A stretch of DNA of 64,000 nucleotides from Candidatus Bathyarchaeota archaeon (GCA_963833125.1 CAWHWX010000016.1:455622-519621), one strand, 5' to 3'. Numbered from the stretch's first letter, positions 11,775 through 22,903 are shown. Notes: a model not told the origin generated them from the sequence alone. A program made the numbers and translations.

Positions 11775-13239
11775 ATGAAACTCCGAATACTTGTTGTTGG
11801 GCTGTTGGTTGCGGCTTTCTGCCTCTCCATCCTCTCGGTCCCATATGCGAACAGTCAATCTTCCACCTCAACGACTACGATGACGATTACCCAACCCGCA
11901 GGTTCCGGTCACTGTACAGTTCGCTCAATAGCCTTCCAGGCAACGAAGGACGACGAGATTGTGGGAAAATATGGATCTGACGCGCAAATCAATTTCTATA
12001 TAATCTCTCAAGATGAATTAAACTCAATTCAAAATTGCCATCTTCCGTCAAGCGCACGACCTCTTCTTGATGAGGAGAATGCGATCGGCTACGGCAATCC
12101 CTATCGTTCTCTTCCTGTCCCAACCAGCGGAACCTATTACTTCGTATTCATCTTCAATGGTCCTGCAAGTGTTCCGTCAGGTTATGCAACTGTTGAGCTT
12201 AGTTTTCCAGCGGCTACGGTTCTAATCAACAGTACATCAAGCTCTAGCAGCGTAATGAATGTCTCCAGCAGAACAAGTCATTTCCAACACAACGGCAACC
12301 ACCATCACTCTCCCGACTTCCACCACATCCGGCTCGTCTTCGACCTCTCAATCCAGTTCGGGATCAGCGTTCGGTAGATTCGGGACTGTAGGAGCAACTG
12401 TTTTGGTTGTCTTCATCCTACTTCTAGGGTCCTTTGTACTCTATATGAAAAGAAAGACCCCGAGAAAAACGTCGCAGAGCACAGTTACGGTAGAAGAGAA
12501 GTCTTCTCCAAGAGCCGTGCCATTGGCTCCTCAAACTGCTCCTCAACCAGCCCCTCAACCTGCTCCACGTGAACCCCCAGTTAGGGTTAGCGACTTGGAC
12601 AGGCTCTTGGCGGCAGGTTTGCCACAGCGTGCTGCGGTCCTTCTGCTCTCTCCGCGCTGCGAGGAAAGAGACCTACTATTGCGGAAGATCATCCGCTCCG
12701 CAATATCTGCCGGGATGCCGACCGTTTATTTGTCCAGCGATCCAACCAAAATTCAGGACATGGCGAGCACGTACAAAGAGAATTTCTATATCGTTAGTCC
12801 ACAAGCCGCCATAGTTTCAGCCCCTCCCGCGAACGTGTACAAGGTCCCCAGCATAGACAGCTTAAGCGACTTGGATGCAGCATTTGCAAGGATTATGCAG
12901 ATCCACTCACAGCCGACGTCGCTCAATAGATTGCTCGTAGTTGATCTTCTCACATATTCTCACATGTTCCTTCTTCATCAGGGAGTGACAGCCAGAAAAT
13001 GGTTTTCCGATTTTCTTGCCAAACGCAAAGCCCAGAGTTTCACAGTCCTCGCATTTCTCAACCCACTCGTAACCTCCCACGAGGAGACGCAGACGCTCAG
13101 CGATGTGTTCGATGGGCTCATGGAAATCTACCAGAAGCAAATCCACGGGAGGTCGCCACGATTCTTAACCATCAGGAGAATGTTCGGGCGTAAATATTCC
13201 GACTCAGACGTGATGCTCGATAAAAACAAACTATTCTAG
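11775..13239 (+). CDS. Membrane protein: ectodomain, Ser/Thr linker, TM, Pro-rich linker, degenerate KaiC/RAD55-like ATPase; frameshift at ~12265
   Basis: DLDRLLAAGLP, P-loop position SPRCEERD, LVVDLL, FDGLMEI, RFLTIRRMFG. Confidence 0.75.
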
Positions 13240-14150: not shown

Positions 14151-14645
14151 TTGTCTGAACGGAAGTTGCGGTTCAGGATTCGTAGAGGGAATTTCGAAAT
14201 CGAACTCGAGGGAGAATTCGACTATGTGCAAGGGAAATTCGAGGAGCTAATGAGATCCCCGCCAGTGGGGGCTGGGGGGGTGCAAGCCTTAGGTGACCAA
14301 TCGGGCCAGGCATTTGTGCCAGGGGAGGAGCTTGCCGGAATTCTAGAAACTACTTCAGAAGGTAAATTGCATTTCACTATACCCTTCGATAGAATCTCGG
14401 CGAAAGAAGCCATCGGAATCATTGTTTACGGAAGTAATCCTGCACCCATCGAAGACGCCAAACTAATCGAACTTCTTGGAACAAGTTGGAAGGCGGTCAA
14501 GGATAACGTTGTGCGAGCGAGGGTTAGCGAGTTGAGAAAGGAGGGCAAGCTGATCGCCGAACAAGGCAGGTACTCACTTTCAGGGGCCGGACTCCAATGG
14601 ATAAGTCAAGATGTGCTCCCTAAGCTGAGACCGGCAGCAGCATAG
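14151..14645 (+). CDS. Winged-helix protein, paralog of 16074..16607 and 16612..17121
   Basis: C-terminal wHTH VVRARVSELRKEG...GRYSLSGAGL; shares GILETTSEG and VLPKL-like segments with 16074..16607. Confidence 0.8.
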   Translation: MSERKLRFRIRRGNFEIELEGEFDYVQGKFEELMRSPPVGAGGVQALGDQSGQAFVPGEELAGILETTSEGKLHFTIPFDRISAKEAIGIIVYGSNPAPIEDAKLIELLGTSWKAVKDNVVRARVSELRKEGKLIAEQGRYSLSGAGLQWISQDVLPKLRPAAA

Positions 14646-14820
14646 TACTGGATAATCCTAAGAGTACTAATAAGGGATAATAAGACTCGGTGTACTCATA
14701 ATTCTCAAAAGGCAGAACCCAGGCGCCGATTGTTAGGCTCTGGGAATAAAGGGGGAAACGTCCTCGAGTGGGAACCCGAGAACGCACAGTCGGATCTACA
14801 GTGAGGAATGCCGGAGCGTT

Positions 14821-15456
14821 CTAACCGCCCTGCGGAGGTGATGTCGGGGTTATGGAACTAACGGTGAGGGTGTTGGGTGAGCAAGCAGCAGAATTGGCAA
14901 CGACGAGGCTTGTGCTTGTGATCGATAGCTGTCCGATTACGTCAACCCAGCTTCCGATCGGTGGGGATGATGCTGGCAAGTTTTGTAGCGTGTAGTGTAC
15001 GAATTGGAGGCCTGACCTCCAATAGTTCGGGTCTGTCGTTTGAACTGAAAGTTGGGTGCATCCGTTTCCGTTTTGGACTAGGTAGCCATAGCAGGTTACT
15101 TGGTTGCTGCCATTGCCGCCGACAGGGGTGCATGGTGTGTATGTGTAGCCTTGTGCGGGCGAACATCCGTAGTATCCACACGTCTGATAGAACCCAGGCT
15201 CTCTACCGTTCAAATTGATCGCATTATTGACTGCTGCGGCGCTGGTTACTGTATTGGTGTTGGTGGCGGTGACGGTTTGGGTTTGTGTGCTGAAGAAGTT
15301 TTGAGTATTCGTTAGGTACTGTTGCTGGGTTACTGTCGCCACGTGCGGGATTGACATCGTGTACCCTGCGTATCCTAAGCTGAGAATCGCAACGAGAGCA
15401 GCTCCGATAATTGTCAGAGTGGTTTTGTTCATTTTCAACACGTTATAGTGGGGCAC
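14821..15456 (-). CDS. Membrane-anchored extracellular Thr/Cys-rich hypothetical protein (possible OB-fold)
   Basis: N-terminal TM, Thr-rich linker, six Cys, GSWVDVIGQL. Confidence 0.65.
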   Translation of the reverse strand: MPHYNVLKMNKTTLTIIGAALVAILSLGYAGYTMSIPHVATVTQQQYLTNTQNFFSTQTQTVTATNTNTVTSAAAVNNAINLNGREPGFYQTCGYYGCSPAQGYTYTPCTPVGGNGSNQVTCYGYLVQNGNGCTQLSVQTTDPNYWRSGLQFVHYTLQNLPASSPPIGSWVDVIGQLSITSTSLVVANSAACSPNTLTVSSITPTSPPQGG

Positions 15457-15574
15457 ATGGAAAACCGGTTAAGGGTATTTCCACCCAGTAGAAAGCGACT
15501 TCACTAGGTGGAATCAAATTCACCGCGACAAGATCCGACGTCGCCATCGAATACCTTGCGATCATCATCGAAGT

Positions 15575-15853
15575 CTAGTTTGAATTCGATTTAGCCTGTC
15601 CATCAAGCCATTCAAGACGCCGAATCCCCCTGTCCGTCAACGAGTAGGTAAATTGCCCTCCGCTGCGGACACGCTTCAACAAGCCTTGTCGGTAATAGCG
15701 CATCAAAGCCATACGGATCGCATGAATCTCAGACTGTACTTTTCCCGAAGAGATGAGAATCCGCAAAAGCGAATCGCTATCCAACGGCCCCTTGTCCGCC
15801 AAGACTCGTAACAGAACCCGTTTCAACTGATTATAGTCCAAATTACACTCCAA
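15575..15853 (-). CDS. Small wHTH transcriptional regulator (PaaX-N-like)
   Basis: AIRMALMRYYRQGLLKR...YSLTDRGIRRL. Confidence 0.75.
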   Translation of the reverse strand: MECNLDYNQLKRVLLRVLADKGPLDSDSLLRILISSGKVQSEIHAIRMALMRYYRQGLLKRVRSGGQFTYSLTDRGIRRLEWLDGQAKSNSN

Positions 15854-15926
15854 CTCTACACCATTATGCTTTAAAACATTGCATTTCCGTGCTATTGCTC
15901 GTCAGATTCCATCTGAACCGAACGTA

Positions 15927-16014
15927 AGTAACACCTAGCAGAACTATCGATTCTGACGTAATCCTGCTCGAACCCGCACAAACGGCAACGTGCAAATCGA
16001 GTAACACCTAGCAG
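15927..16014. promoter_or_regulatory. Two perfect 15-bp direct repeats AGTAACACCTAGCAG (15927-15941, 16000-16014) in a divergent promoter region
   Basis: Exact repeat with 73-bp period; TATA-like TTTATA at ~16037 (+) and TTTAAA at ~15870 for the divergent gene. Confidence 0.7.
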
Positions 16015-16073
16015 GGTTAATGTGCACTTCAAAGCTTTTATACTGTGTAGGATTGAAACTGAAATGAAAGTAA

Positions 16074-16607
16074 ATGCCGGAAGGCCAACAGGAACTCACA
16101 AGCCTAGCACAGCCGCTAGAAGTCATCATCAGATACGGAACTCTCGAGAAGAAAATTACCGGTCCACCAGACCAGGTCGCAAATGAAGTTCTATCATTCC
16201 TCAACAAAGCTATTCCCCAACTCGAACTCGCGTCCCACCTGTCCTTATCCGTCGACATCAACGAACTCGCAAAAGCCTGTGAGGGGATTCTCGCGGTGAC
16301 GCCCGAAGGGGTCGTCGTCACCGTCCCAGTCGATAAGCTGGCGGACCGCGAACTCCTCCTCCTCTACTTAGCGAAGGCATCGATCGCGCAAAAGCTGGGT
16401 AAGGCAGACAAGGATCTCGTGCAATCAGCTGATTTGATCGTCGCAACCAAGAAATCTGCAGGAACCGTGGCAGGCAGACTCAGCGAACTCTGTGGTGAAA
16501 GTTTAGCGGAGAGAAAGGGCAAGGGTGAGTACCGGGTGACAACCCTCGGGTTGCACTTATTTCGCGAACAGGTTATTCCCAAACTAAAATCCAGCTTGGG
16601 GAAGTGA
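16074..16607 (+). CDS. Winged-helix protein (paralog family), first gene of the putative wHTH-wHTH-nurA-herA operon
   Basis: TVAGRLSELCGESLAERKGKGEYRVTTLGL. Confidence 0.8.
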   Translation: MPEGQQELTSLAQPLEVIIRYGTLEKKITGPPDQVANEVLSFLNKAIPQLELASHLSLSVDINELAKACEGILAVTPEGVVVTVPVDKLADRELLLLYLAKASIAQKLGKADKDLVQSADLIVATKKSAGTVAGRLSELCGESLAERKGKGEYRVTTLGLHLFREQVIPKLKSSLGK

Positions 16608-16611
16608 AGAC

Positions 16612-17121
16612 ATGACTCAAGCTGAAACTTTGCAGGTTAAGGTGCAGATAGACGTGGAAGGCATGCACTACGAGGGCAACGGGTCGGTCGAAGAGATCGT
16701 ACCGCAAGTGATGCAGTTTCTCATCCAAGCCGTCCCCACATTCAATCTCGCGAAGAAACTCGTATATGTTCCCGATCTTGCAGGACTCGCTGACAAAGTC
16801 GCTGATTTCGCTAGGATGACTTCGACCGGGCAATTACTTCTAACTCGCATTAACCTACCAGCTGAGAAAGCGATCACGGTGATACTCTTCATGGCCCAAT
16901 TGGCGGGCAAGATGGGCAAACGAGGATCAGATTCATTGAGTATTGAGGAGATTTCGACCGGAATAGGCAGGGCGCCGAAAACGATTAGAAACGTCCTCGT
17001 CCAGCTTCAACGGTCTAGTCAAATTGATCGTGCCGACCGAGGTAGGTATCGAATCACTTCCAAAGGCCTCATGGAACTCGAGCGATCCCTAGTGGAGTTA
17101 CGCGGAGGAGGTAACGCCTAG
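16612..17121 (+). CDS. Winged-helix protein (paralog family)
   Basis: LSIEEISTGIGRAPKTIRNVLVQL...RGRYRITSKGL; aligns along its length with the upstream gene; 4-nt gap. Confidence 0.8.
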   Translation: MTQAETLQVKVQIDVEGMHYEGNGSVEEIVPQVMQFLIQAVPTFNLAKKLVYVPDLAGLADKVADFARMTSTGQLLLTRINLPAEKAITVILFMAQLAGKMGKRGSDSLSIEEISTGIGRAPKTIRNVLVQLQRSSQIDRADRGRYRITSKGLMELERSLVELRGGGNA

Positions 17122-17220
17122 GTTCTAGGAAAGTGTAGGTTTCATGGCCGCACATAGAGAGAGGGTGCGGCGGCCGCGGGGGATTTGGGGAATCGACCCG
17201 CTAACGGGGGCTGGAATGAA

Positions 17221-18330
17221 ATGAGCCGCCACACCCACCAAACCACAGCTACGCAACAGAAGATAAGTAACTTTCTCTGCCCGGAGGACTCCGGTAGCGT
17301 AATTCCAAAGCACTTCCTAGACTTCTGCCGCGATTCAGTGGAAGCGATCAGAGGAAATCAACTCTACACTGTACCCGCTGTTCCACCGGACTTCGGGAGC
17401 ACACAATATGATGGAGCCGACGGGTTCACGTTGGACCTAGCCGCCGATAGCGAGCACATCGCCAAACTTGACTCTATTACTACAGACCGGCCAGTAATCG
17501 CGGTTGACACATCATCCATCAAACTCGGTGAACTCGCAGACGGAGTGCTATGTGCGTTGCGAGGAGCCGTAGTTGTTCTTGAAGCAAATCAATATCGCTA
17601 TGTGAAGTATGGCCCGTTCGTCTTTTCGCTTGGTTACAATAGTCCTCTCGTCTCTCAAAGTTTCACCAACCTTGGCCTACCGCCGTTCTCAGGCGAGCCA
17701 AATATCGACAGTTTACTGAAACGAGTTCGGAACATGCTTGAGCGATGGCTTCAATACAATGCAAGTTCCTCCGTTAGAAACGCTTTCCTCCTCATCGACG
17801 GCTCGCTCACTGCTGGAACGCCTGACAACCCTTCCAGAGACCTCGAACGTATCTTGCAAAACGCGCGCAGTTCAGGTAGCGCTCTAATCGCCATATCGAA
17901 GAAAACTAAGCTGCGAATAAGAAATGAAGGACTAACTGCGCTGCTCGAGCATGAATCTGATCCTTGTTTACTGGATGTTGACACTGAGATTACGGAGCAG
18001 TTTCCTCCATATCCAGTGCAGTTCTTGGGTCGGGTTTTTGTGGCAAAACTTGCCAGGTTCGGTTTTCCGTTCAGAATCGACATCGACAGGCAAATTCCCG
18101 CCGACGCCGCCGTGAATGAGATTGCTCAGCTTTCTGGCACAGACATTGTAGATCAAGGTTATCCAGAAACCCTCAGAATGGCTCACGTACTATCGACTTT
18201 CACAGCCATGGATGTACTTGCCATGCAAGCTTTCGCTCAGGCTGAATTCGGAGTCCAGATGATGCCTAAACTTGCCCTACGGCATTCACTATTTGGTCCG
18301 TTCGGGACCGCGTGGGAGGCTCTTCATTGA
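17221..18330 (+). CDS. nurA: NurA-family nuclease
   Basis: VIAVDTS, LLIDGSL, IAISKKT, GYPETLRMAH. Confidence 0.85.
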   Translation: MSRHTHQTTATQQKISNFLCPEDSGSVIPKHFLDFCRDSVEAIRGNQLYTVPAVPPDFGSTQYDGADGFTLDLAADSEHIAKLDSITTDRPVIAVDTSSIKLGELADGVLCALRGAVVVLEANQYRYVKYGPFVFSLGYNSPLVSQSFTNLGLPPFSGEPNIDSLLKRVRNMLERWLQYNASSSVRNAFLLIDGSLTAGTPDNPSRDLERILQNARSSGSALIAISKKTKLRIRNEGLTALLEHESDPCLLDVDTEITEQFPPYPVQFLGRVFVAKLARFGFPFRIDIDRQIPADAAVNEIAQLSGTDIVDQGYPETLRMAHVLSTFTAMDVLAMQAFAQAEFGVQMMPKLALRHSLFGPFGTAWEALH

Positions 18331-19785
18331 AGATTCTCAAAAAAGAAGCTGACGACATGCACCTCTTATGCTTCCCAGATGAGGAGGTCGACAAAGGGGA
18401 CTACTTACTCGTAACGGATAGAGTCAAACAACGTTCCCTAATCGTACAAGTGATCGACATTCAATACGCAAACATACCCGGTATCCTGGAAGATCTACTC
18501 AGGGACGGCATATCCGAAGGTTCCCTCTCAGGCGATGAAGTCGACCCTTTCAAAGTATCATCGCAGATCAGAGTCCTGAAAGATACGAGATTGTTGGTTG
18601 GAAAAATCAGAGGGGCAATCGAAAACGGCCGCATAAGCAGAGATGTTGCCTGGTTGCCGTCCAGGAACCATTCTCATGTGGAAGCAATGCCGGCGAAACT
18701 ATTCCTAGAGAATCTGTCGTCAAGGCACGCGTTTGAGATCGGGTCAACGCACCGTTTCCCTCATATCAACTCAGACCTAGCGGCCCTCGACGGACGGCTA
18801 AACATAGTCACGGGTAGGAAAGGGACGGGCAAGTCACATCTTACAAAGCTTCTCGTGACGAGCCTCGTTCAGGAAGGCGCGCCGGTGGTCGTTTTGGATG
18901 TGAACGGGGAATATGTCAACTTGGGACGCTCTACGGACGGACGCCAAATGCATTTATCACCAAAGATAATTTCTTTGATCCCAGGCCTAAACCTGAGGTT
19001 CAGCCTAAGGGAAGTTGGGCTTAGCACCCTGTTGGGGACATTGATTTATGCGCTCGCGCTCCCCGAGAACTCTGCCCGCATATTCAGCCGGATCTGGCGC
19101 GACCTCGAACGGCAGAATCAACTTACTATGGCGGCTCTCGGCGCAGCAATTGCCAACGCCGACTGCCACGAAAGTATCAAAGACGCACTCCAGGCCAGGT
19201 TCAACACCCTCGACGATTCCGGCATATTCACCGACGACAACCGCACAGCCCTAAACCTTGAAGAACTCTTCAGAAACCATTCCACTGGCTGCGCCCTGAT
19301 CGTGAATATGAAGAACCAGTACTCGGCCCTGCGACGAATCGTTGTTGAGTTGCTTATCAGTAAATTCACGGAACTCCTATCCACCCAAAAACTCCGCCGC
19401 ACTCTTCTTGTTCGCAGAGGAGGCCCACTTGTACCTGAAGGAAACTTACTGGGATGACGTCGTTACACGAATGCGGCACTTGGGCCTATTCACCACTTTC
19501 GTTACAAACCAACCGGATACGATTCAGAGCAGTATCTACCGTCAGGCTGACAACGTGTTCCTATTCAACTTCAGCAACGAACACGATCTCGAGATCGTTT
19601 CAAAAGTAGCTAAAGTGGACGCAGATACAATACGTATGGTTGTGCGGGATCTTCCACCACACCGATGCTTGGTGATCGGTGATGTTGTAGCGAACTTTCC
19701 TTTAGTTGTGAATGTGCGCCCGCTAGAGATTCAAACCCTAGGAGCAACGCGTTACTTCTTCGAAGACGCACTAGCAGTGGCCTAG
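18327..19785 (+). CDS. herA: HerA/FtsK-family ATPase with N-terminal HAS-barrel-like region; frameshift at ~19395
   Basis: GRKGTGKS, VLDVNGEY, FAEEAHLY, RMRHLG...VTNQP; TTG start overlaps the nurA stop. Confidence 0.88.
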
Positions 19786-21270: not shown

Positions 21271-22903
21271 CTAACTTAAGAGGCCATGGCGGTCCCGATC
21301 GCTCGACCTAAACTGCCGGGCCACGTTTTCGCTGCCCATGGCTTTGATGTAGGGCCCTAATCGGGGTCCGCGGGGTGATCCTAATAGAATGGTGTAAAGG
21401 AGTTTGAAGAAGTTCGAAGGTTCGATGGCGTACTTCTTCGCCAGGTTGAAGATGCTGTTTTGTAGAATCCTCTCGTCGCTTTCACTTCGTACAATCGATA
21501 TAAGGTCCTCTATCGCGAGTTTCTCTGTGTTTTTTATTTCAATTTTTGTCTCCGGGATCTCTTGAAAATCTTTCGCCCAATTTGTTGCATAATTTAGCTC
21601 CTGCTGGATCTCAGGTGTTACTCCATTCTTGAGATAGCCGTATTCGCGAAGTTTTTTTTCGATATAATCGATTCGATTATCGGCTGGCGAAATGGTCACA
21701 AGGTACACTAACAAATTGTATGGGACGTGAGCCCTTGCGGCTTGGGGTGGTTTGAGGAAGTAGGCGTAATCATAGAGCCCTTTGAGTTTAGCAGCTTCCT
21801 TCTCATCGCTCACCGTGCGTAATCCAAAGTAGATTTCTTCCAAGCGGTTTAGTTCGTTGACGAACGTGGGGATGTCCTCAACTCCAACGTTTCTCGCACC
21901 TGTAATTCGTTTGAACATGAGAAGGTTGAGAGAGGCGGGTGGAGCGTACTTGAACCATGTCTGCGGAGTGAGCACGTCAACAGCTGACTTCGATTTGGAG
22001 ATCTTTTGCCCACCTTTGTCGAGGAAAAGTTCGTAACGCACATGGTAGGGTGGAGGACAGCCGAGTATCTCTTCACAGATTCTGTCGTTGATCCGCACCG
22101 AGTCGGAGAGTTCCTTTCCGTAAGCTTCGAAATTTATTTCAAGCGCCGCCCACCGTGCCGTCGAACTCGCCTTTCCACGGAAGCTTTCCCCTTCCATCCG
22201 TGATATTCGTCTCTCCCTTGTAACCGCAACCAGTGAGTTGTTGGCCTCTGATTTCGGCCGTACCTTCGCATGAGTAGAGTACTTTGTCGGATTTCTGGAC
22301 AAACGAGGTTGATTTTGTTGTGTATATTCGTCCGCAAGAGCCGCAAATCGGAAAGTAAGGCAGCACAGCCGTGAACTTTTCCTGACCCACTTCTTCCTTG
22401 ACTATCTCTCCTACTTTCTCCGCTGACGTGAGTATTTTTCTGACCTGGTCGAGGAGGAGTCCTTTTCTGTAGTCTTCCGTTGCGGAGTGGAAAACATATT
22501 CAACTCCGCATTTGTCCATCGCATCCCTGAGTAGGGAATTAATGTGAACGGCGTAGCTTTCGTGGCAGTTGTATGGGTCTGGAATTGCGGAAACCGGTTG
22601 GCCTAGAAAATTCTTGAGCGAGTCGGGCATTCCAGTTGGGATTTTTCTCAGCCCGTCGAGATCATCTGAGTAAGCGATGAATTCGGCCTTTCGGCCTTGG
22701 GTTTCGAGAGCGATCTTTACTCCATAGGCCCGGATGGCGTCTCCTAAGCTACCTATGTGTGGGATTCCTGAAGCTCCCAGACCACTTTCGGTCCGGAGTA
22801 CGATTACTTTCCTGCCGAGTTTCTCTTCGTGTTCTATCACCCGGCGGGCGACCATATCGAGCCAGGTGCCGCGGCCTATGATTTCGGTTCTTTGGTCTGA
22901 CAA
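21271..22903 (-). CDS. lysS: Class I lysyl-tRNA synthetase; frameshift at ~22160
   Basis: SGIPHIGS, DDLDGLRK, GKLPWK joined to ARWAAL...YGKE, KISKSK, GPRLGPYI. Confidence 0.93.

Follow-up and report, generated by a model that had tools for sequence, protein, structure and literature searches.

Paralogous winged-helix proteins beside a divergent NurA-HerA pair in Bathyarchaeia and related archaea: possible DNA-binding partners or regulators of the pair

Here we describe a family of paralogous winged helix-turn-helix (wHTH) proteins whose genes are coupled to those of a divergent NurA-family nuclease and a divergent HerA/FtsK-superfamily ATPase in a 64,000-nucleotide (nt) stretch of a Candidatus Bathyarchaeota genome (GCA_963833125.1, CAWHWX010000016.1:455622-519621; in our numbering G000:C16:455622-519621), which we refer to throughout as the window. 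The paralog family appears to be undescribed, and the locus has the look of a DNA-processing machine that has not been studied before, equipped with DNA-binding partners or regulators of its own. We lean, tentatively, towards a reading in which the paralogs are dedicated DNA-binding partners (subunits or targeting factors) of the NurA-HerA machine, with a wHTH protein of the locus also controlling the operon. The assembly comprises 3.07 Mb in 39 contigs and is 87.8% complete and 7% contaminated, and the close relatives of the window's proteins are labelled Candidatus Bathyarchaeia. An earlier note on the window, made from the sequence alone, had suggested that two of the paralogs, here A and B, head an operon with nurA and herA. 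Open reading frame (ORF) calling confirmed all of the gene positions it gave, and the ORF layout together with the PF09376 and PF01935 matches bears out the operon. The genes of this module are as follows (aa, amino acids):

14151-14645, plus strand: paralog C, 164 aa, a loosely linked member of the wHTH-paralog family, related to A and B by BLASTP
16074-16607, plus strand: paralog A, 177 aa, which opens the operon and is the best conserved of the paralogs
16612-17121, plus strand: paralog B, 169 aa, the second gene of the operon
17185-18330, plus strand: divergent NurA-family nuclease, 381 aa (PF09376)
18312-19785, plus strand: divergent HerA/FtsK-superfamily ATPase (PF01935), in two frames in the window

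We counted paralogs as linked when they lie within about 3 kb of a NurA-HerA pair, and since the genomes are kin the counts are not independent. On this definition the coupling to nurA-herA proposed in the earlier note is kept in 39 of 45 loci (19/20 from the same order, 3/5 from divergent members of the class and 17/20 from outside the class). Within the order (20 genomes, 10 families) A, B, NurA and HerA are contiguous in 19 loci, the 20th ending with its contig after B, and B stands directly 3' of A in 20/20, often with a 4-nt overlap (overlaps here and below were computed with starts set by the first-start rule). A further subfamily, C', directly precedes A in 7 of these loci, again often with 4-nt overlaps, and orthologues of C within the genus (72-94% identity) lie 0.1-3 kb upstream of A. 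Overall, two to four subfamilies occur in the fixed order C, C', A, B, and adjoining ORFs often overlap by 4 nt. At locus L039, A is 57% identical to its window counterpart, B 35%, NurA 41% and the N-terminal part of HerA 44%. In the 20 genomes from outside the class, one to three paralogs stand directly upstream of an orthologous NurA-HerA pair in 13 loci, and in 4 loci they lie 1-2.5 kb from, and divergent to, a different pair (NurA 382-412 aa, HerA 514-557 aa); in 3/20 neither NurA nor HerA was found in the stretch fetched. Of the five divergent genomes of the class, the module is present in one, a paralog pair stands 1.7-2.3 kb upstream of a second-type NurA-HerA pair in two, and the remaining two hold a single paralog without either kind of pair nearby. 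Sorted by clade, the partner pair is of the module type in 33 loci and of the second type (NurA 350-412 aa, HerA 503-557 aa) in 6, and because it belongs to two clades the paralog association appears to have been kept or re-formed across NurA-HerA types. Second-type pairs were seen by paralog arrays at L163:10530-13345, L164:10593-13420, L169:3848-6537, L193:3433-6011 and L195:3193-5738, in lineages without a module-type HerA, and unnamed ORFs of 231-259 aa recur between the arrays in L163 and L164. When the places of the paralogs and of the module HerA were compared by eye in 38 genomes of the class outside the order, the two were no more than 3.5 kb apart in 24. The neighbours of the module in the genus are housekeeping genes such as lysS, and its flanking genes differ between lineages.

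A profile of the family matched 172 of the 201 genomes sampled from the class and 110 of the 120 high-quality ones (E<=1e-5). In a sample of the phylum it gave rows in 191/301 genomes at E<=0.001, many of them weak generic wHTH rows, and strong rows (best E 1e-16 to 1e-52) were found in about a dozen families outside the class. A search for related loci with an alignment of A alone reached only Bathyarchaeia-labelled records and a few mislabelled bins. Proteins identical to those of the out-of-class loci carry the source names Candidatus Caldarchaeum subterraneum, Calditenuaceae, Brockarchaeota and Nitrososphaerota, and in these exact look-ups all are named 'hypothetical protein', with HerA named 'DUF87 domain-containing'. 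The module-type HerA itself is present in 113/201 genomes of the class (E<=1e-60) and in 0/43 and 0/5 of families f22 and f19, respectively; one genome of each of these two families was annotated, and both have paralogs beside a second-type NurA-HerA pair. The module is chromosomal and largely vertically inherited, in Bathyarchaeia and several other lineages of Thermoproteota.

That the three proteins of about 165-177 aa share one architecture, as first noticed in the window, was upheld by above-chance BLASTP matches (A-B, E=6e-12 with 25% identity over 133 aa; C-A, 2e-6; C-B, 1e-3) and by a full-length alignment of 40 orthologues from 13 genomes. The four subfamilies of the family (A, B, C and C') align end to end and are old. 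The conserved elements are an N-terminal hairpin, a hairpin with the motif G-I/V-x-x-x-T-P-E/D-G, and the wHTH. An AlphaFold2 (AF2) model of A built from the 40-row alignment (predicted local distance difference test, pLDDT, 86.5; predicted template-modelling score, pTM, 0.65) displays the layout that had been anticipated, that is a beta-hairpin, a central hairpin and a C-terminal wHTH. In this model the N-terminal part consists of strands 15-21 and 24-30, helices 32-46, 48-57 and 62-68, and strands 73-76 and 79-82, the hairpin 73-82 being the GI..TPEG motif; the wHTH follows with helices 91-107, 118-125 and 129-141, a wing at 145-155 and then a C-terminal helix at 157-176. Residues 83-177 of the model have the winged-helix fold of MarR/PadR-type factors, and superpose on MarR/PadR-type proteins, AF1382 and AspA with Z 10-11 and a root-mean-square deviation (rmsd) of 1.7-3.1 A over 76-87 residues, a match that takes in the C-terminal helix after the wing. 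Similar to A, AF1382 and the archaeal pNOB8 centromere-binding adaptor AspA are winged-helix proteins of the MarR/PadR kind; unlike these binders, however, the paralogs fall under the cut-offs of all wHTH families (the best Pfam scores being PaaX 16.1, HVO_A0261_N 16.3 and HTH_DeoR 13.4 bits), carry an extra N-terminal region of about 85 residues, and occur in tandem sets tied to NurA-HerA. The N-terminal region is conserved and of unmatched fold, and modelled alone (residues 1-88) it gave an unreliable pLDDT of 50.6.

No NCBIfam model matched A, B or C, the Atlas neighbours of the paralogs are unnamed 'hypothetical' clusters, and the 474 relatives of A are all named 'hypothetical' or mis-named. 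A Foldseek search with the whole A chain returned nothing at E<=0.001, its top row being JetB (8dk1_E) at E=4.2e-3, with a template-modelling score of 0.41 and an rmsd of 12.4 A. KITE proteins such as JetB and ScpB are similar in size to the paralogs, but that match is weak, hhalign against the genome's own ScpB gave a probability of 0.1%, and the locus contains no SMC or kleisin; homology to ScpB and other KITE proteins was dropped as a lead. An A-B complex prediction scored 0.02 against a mark of 0.32, and carries no weight for or against binding. Searched against 1.84 billion representatives, the profile of the 40 family sequences matched 695 proteins at E<=0.001, most of them 150-185 aa long; 223 of these passed E<=1e-10 and 46 passed E<=1e-30. 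Fused relatives also occur, joined to a Ser/Thr protein kinase (P0123, family E=2.4e-52), AbiTii, a CAP12/Pycsar-type TIR and DUF488; the proteins that bear such fusions are P0123, P0239, P0248 and P0256.

The two enzymes of the module look active from their sequences. NurA scores 34.8 bits on PF09376 (cut-off 21) and so has a recognisable NurA domain; residues D108, D205, K239, Y326, H334 and R366 are invariant in 25/25 orthologues, and E186 and D320 are kept in 24/25, with D108, E186, D205, D320 and H334 being what we take to be catalytic positions. The NurA equivalog models NF041032 and NF041033 match neither the window NurA (E<=0.1) nor a Caldarchaeum-type orthologue (E<=0.01), and no PDB sequence matches NurA at E<=1. 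These equivalog models seem narrow, since the canonical NurA of a related genome (G038) itself scores only 31.6 and 26.3 bits on them. HerA belongs to the superfamily by its match to PF01935 (DUF87; E=1.3e-13, 52 bits against a cut-off of 23.2), and its Walker A motif (G168..GKS175, GxxGxGKS), EE369-370 at Walker B and several arginines are invariant in 23/23 orthologues (numbering of an intact 490-aa orthologue). In the window herA is not a single ORF: the gene is split into 18312-19457 and 19342-19785. Aligned at the DNA level with three congeners it has one extra base near 19397, a base also absent from the one public contig of run X2 that spans the site (about 94% alike), and among the 19 same-order loci that hold herA it is a single ORF of 474-507 aa in 15, split in 3 and cut by a contig end in 1. 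Close by, the class I lysyl-tRNA synthetase gene lysS (21271-22903, minus strand) is likewise in two overlapping ORFs (22139-22903 and 21271-22302), whereas it is whole (543-567 aa) in four of six relatives (L033, L034, L036 and L046) and split in L035 and L047; this second frameshift, within 3.5 kb of that in herA, points to indel errors in the assemblies concerned. On the same contig the SMC gene is broken too. Because lysS and the SMC gene are also split, the herA frameshift is likely an assembly error, with a strain-specific pseudogene as the less likely alternative.

Upstream of the operon lie further features, among them the small wHTH gene that had been described as unrelated to the paralogs and divergent from the operon, which the ORF layout supports:

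14821-15456, minus strand: 211-aa ORF with no family match above threshold
15575-15853, minus strand: small wHTH gene unrelated to the paralogs, 92 aa, divergent from the operon (PaaX-like Pfam match, 25.7 bits against a cut-off of 24.8)
15927-15941, no strand assigned: first copy of a direct repeat, AGTAACACCTAGCAG, operator-like
16000-16014, no strand assigned: second copy of the repeat, 73 nt from the first, with a TATA-like TTTTATA about 22 nt downstream of it, ahead of A

The small wHTH gene, a candidate local regulator, is found in the same position in 13/20 same-order loci. The 220-nt spacer between it and A holds the two copies of the 16-nt direct repeat, 73 nt apart, upstream of both divergent TATA-like boxes, a region that on our reading of the sequence would be a promoter element. 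The 14-nt core of the repeat occurs exactly at only these two sites in the 3.07 Mb genome, with 0.02 expected. Of the genus loci checked, the window among them, 7/7 preserve the repeat with its 72-74 nt spacing, as does one further genus of the family; in 3 loci checked from other families it was not found.

The favoured reading, in which the paralogs serve the NurA-HerA machine directly, would work as follows. Judging from their families, the HerA ring would translocate DNA and NurA would cut it. The paralogs would bind duplex DNA through the winged helix, probably as homo- or hetero-oligomers, and would recruit, load or gate NurA-HerA on its substrate, and control of the operon via the paired 16-nt repeats would also fall to one or more of the locus's winged-helix proteins, be it the small divergent one or a paralog. 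We infer the DNA binding, the oligomers, the contact with NurA or HerA and the substrate. We favour this partnership because the paralogs come in fixed multi-member sets, are coupled to the operon, accompany two NurA-HerA clades and have a core-like distribution, with A about as conserved as the enzymes; further support comes from the invariant nuclease and ATPase motifs and from the C-terminal half being a wHTH of DNA-binding type.

Several observations weigh against a direct partnership, and many of these point towards a purely regulatory alternative, in which the paralogs stand outside the machine itself and act solely as transcription factors of the nurA-herA operon, as a dedicated set that may be heteromeric and would be autoregulatory or respond to damage. 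This alternative we regard as possible, if somewhat improbable. The MarR/PadR-like fold is that of classic transcription factors. The operator-like repeat is conserved in the promoter region (in the genus and one further genus), and its pairing is unique in the genome. In L163, L164, L169 and L170 the paralogs are divergent from nurA-herA, a layout typical of a regulator and its target. NurA-HerA is not nearby in 6/45 loci, and in 14/38 genomes of the class the paralogs are separated from the module HerA, either by more than 15 kb (17 kb in G141 and 46 kb in G057) or by lying on a different contig, with parts of families f20 and f17 unlinked; assembly breaks may account for some of the different-contig cases. 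Some lineages retain a single paralog. No fusion of a paralog to NurA or HerA was found among the representatives, nor longer fused forms in 7997 candidates (in itself weak evidence), and the kinase, TIR, AbiTii and DUF488 fusions are such as sensor/DNA-binding modules often have. The closest analogy, and a precedent for a paralog pair as a regulator, exists in the actinobacteria, where PafB and PafC, tandem paralogous wHTH proteins, make up a heteromeric activator of the DNA-damage response (PafBC). Similar to PafBC, the paralogs described here are encoded in tandem beside DNA-damage-related genes; they differ in having no detected WYL domain and no shared family with PafBC, in being archaeal, in numbering up to four and in being co-transcribed with enzymes. 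What speaks against a purely regulatory role is that a separate small wHTH already occupies the classic divergent regulator position in those 13/20 same-order loci, that two to four regulators in fixed order, co-translated with a two-enzyme operon across the class, would be unusual, that A is as conserved as the enzymes, and that the repeat motif, not found in the 3 loci of other families, is confined to one family, while the paralogs are far wider.

The partner reading can also be put in a stronger form, in which the paralogs are a hetero-oligomeric recognition or loading factor of a second NurA-HerA pathway, independent of Mre11-Rad50 and ancient in Bathyarchaeia, Caldarchaeales, Brockarchaeia and their kin; in this form it is, for us, doubtful. 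The canonical archaeal HerA-NurA end-resection complex is encoded in the herA-mre11-rad50-nurA operons described for Sulfolobus, Pyrococcus and Thermococcus (PMC3326311, PMC5715905, PMC13748450), and for Nitrososphaera a gene order NurA-HerA-Mre11 is given (PMC13707971). Similar to the canonical pair, the NurA-domain nuclease gene of the module adjoins and overlaps a gene for a HerA/FtsK-superfamily ATPase, acidic/histidine residues and Walker motifs are kept, and a hexameric motor feeding DNA to a nuclease is the likely common principle. However, an intact module HerA (L032:10899-12371) scores 16.8 bits on NF040819 (cut-off 970), and a Caldarchaeum-type orthologue 26.2 bits on NF040937 (cut-off 800), which sets them apart from HerA of canonical double-strand-break repair. 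In a search of 101 class genomes with NF040819 we found better HerA matches in 53 (E<=1e-10). Four such genomes were annotated and have nurA-herA-mre11-rad50 operons, whose HerA scores 156-236 bits (below the cut-off) and whose Mre11 and Rad50 give equivalog matches. Moreover, the module NurA lacks an equivalog match, and the module has two to four winged-helix paralogs while the canonical operon has none. In a quick maximum-likelihood tree of 32 HerAs, midpoint-rooted, the 23 module HerAs form one clade (Shimodaira-Hasegawa-like approximate likelihood-ratio test, SH-aLRT, 100); the canonical HerAs (four, support 88) and those of the second type (four, support 99) each make up a clade of their own. 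Inside the module clade, sequences from outside the class branch apart from those of the order, in agreement with taxonomy. The module HerA thus lies outside the canonical Mre11/Rad50-associated clade, and is not that clade's HerA with mre11 and rad50 moved elsewhere.

The narrower proposal of the earlier note, that the paralog adaptor takes the place of Mre11-Rad50 in end recognition and in loading NurA-HerA, we now consider improbable. Its premise held, in that tblastn with four Bathyarchaeial Mre11 and four Rad50 sequences gave no hit at E<=1e-5 in the window and the 45 loci (739 kb), with positive cross-locus controls. In the window's genome, at 87.8% completeness, no Mre11-type phosphoesterase was found (the three Metallophos genes being the PolD small subunit by orc1 and two small phosphoesterases) and no Rad50 (the best AAA_23 rows belonging to the SMC that goes with ScpA/B and to an SMC-like gene next to an Nse4-like one), NF041031 and NF003034 had no match there, and the single PF09376 match is the window's NurA. 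The Rad50 zinc-hook model PF04423 was too weak to use, giving sub-threshold rows in 3/3 genomes and none in the window's. A canonical HerA match was likewise found in 0/5 sampled genomes of the window's family (f1) and not in the window's genome. Against replacement, three related genomes (G038, G025 and G039) carry the module together with a canonical nurA-herA-mre11-rad50 operon elsewhere, and a fourth (G103) has a canonical operon and, some 2 kb from each other, a paralog match and a module-type HerA (positions from profile matches); within the window's own genus Mre11 is matched in 11/22 genomes and Rad50 in 13/22. Because of this coexistence and these genus counts, the presence of the module does not track the loss of Mre11-Rad50, and the present sample already suggests that the module is as frequent in genomes with Mre11-Rad50 as in those that lack them. 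Because the canonical operon coexists elsewhere in relatives, the module is a system in its own right; neither a move of Mre11-Rad50 to another place nor their plain replacement accounts for it.

A defence role against viruses or plasmids, of the kind in which HerA is joined to an effector, seems very improbable. The module resembles the anti-phage SIR2-HerA and DUF4297-HerA systems (PMC11472057) in combining a HerA-type ATPase with a nuclease-type effector. Among PDB sequences the intact HerA orthologue comes closest, if only weakly, to the HerA of such complexes (8j4u, E=1.2e-4; Sulfolobus HerA 4d2i follows at E=3.2e-3), and PADLOC gave mad8 at 2.5e-13 and several HerA models at about 1e-10. 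However, the scores are far under the cut-offs (36.6 bits on HerA_antiphage against 800; CedD gave 31.5), the effector is NurA and the locus has no Sir2, DUF4297 or other known effector, and the core-like distribution follows taxonomy, where defence islands are typically patchy, with housekeeping genes (lysS) as neighbours in the genus. Equally hard to credit is inherited synteny with no functional link, which the relatedness of many genomes and the unlinked genes of some lineages would allow, but which sits poorly with linkage across several classes (source names Caldarchaeum, Calditenuaceae and Brockarchaeota), two NurA-HerA clades, co-directional and divergent layouts, and differing flanks.

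Some other loci of this genome deserve mention. On contig C19 there is a second, very divergent pair (G000:C19:186259-190644), comprising a 620-aa protein with a weak NurA match (E=0.0076), a 623-aa DUF87/HerA-like ATPase and a 194-aa ORF without family; this second HerA sits on a very long branch in the HerA tree. Contig C7 (G000:C7:63635-66936) encodes an SMC-like ATPase, split into 150 and 485 aa and matching SMC_N at E=4.7e-12; after it come a 266-aa protein that weakly matches the Nse4 C-terminal family (E=1.1e-3) and an ORF of 190 aa. From their sequences these may be a Smc5/6-like or an archaea-specific SMC-related set; the same genome has a regular SMC-ScpA-ScpB set at C16:180223-185085. 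In the window, positions 12259-13239 (plus strand) encode a protein of 326 aa whose N-terminus is rich in Ser, Thr and Pro. It has a hydrophobic stretch and matches a KaiC/RecA-like ATPase weakly (E=0.031), and in the relatives checked by tblastn it is not conserved beside the module.

The earlier note knew of no description of the module, and we likewise found no published account of winged-helix paralogs with NurA-HerA in full-text searches of the literature outside subscription journals. The genomic-context section of a 2026 NurA review (PMC13748450) covers just herA, mre11 and rad50 as neighbours. Two candidate descriptions of the paralog family, AmzR (bioRxiv 10.1101/2025.05.05.652248) and a 'dark matter' paper (PMC4158269), proved unrelated.

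HerA-NurA is the end-resection motor of archaea, and its recruitment to DNA and its role outside the thermophilic models are poorly understood. The module adds a separate HerA-NurA clade with its own DNA-binding paralogs, in a class abundant in soils and sediments. As a defined set of five genes it lends itself to expression and reconstitution, and its lineages include ones with complete genomes (identical proteins carry the source name Candidatus Caldarchaeum subterraneum). Were the paralogs loaders, they would represent a new mode of recruiting a DNA motor-nuclease, and were they regulators, they would give a first handle on DNA-damage control in these archaea; under either reading about 220 'hypothetical' protein clusters would gain context. 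If the stronger form of the partner reading were true, the second pathway would be an undescribed machine for processing DNA ends or stalled forks, core to a major uncultured part of the archaea.

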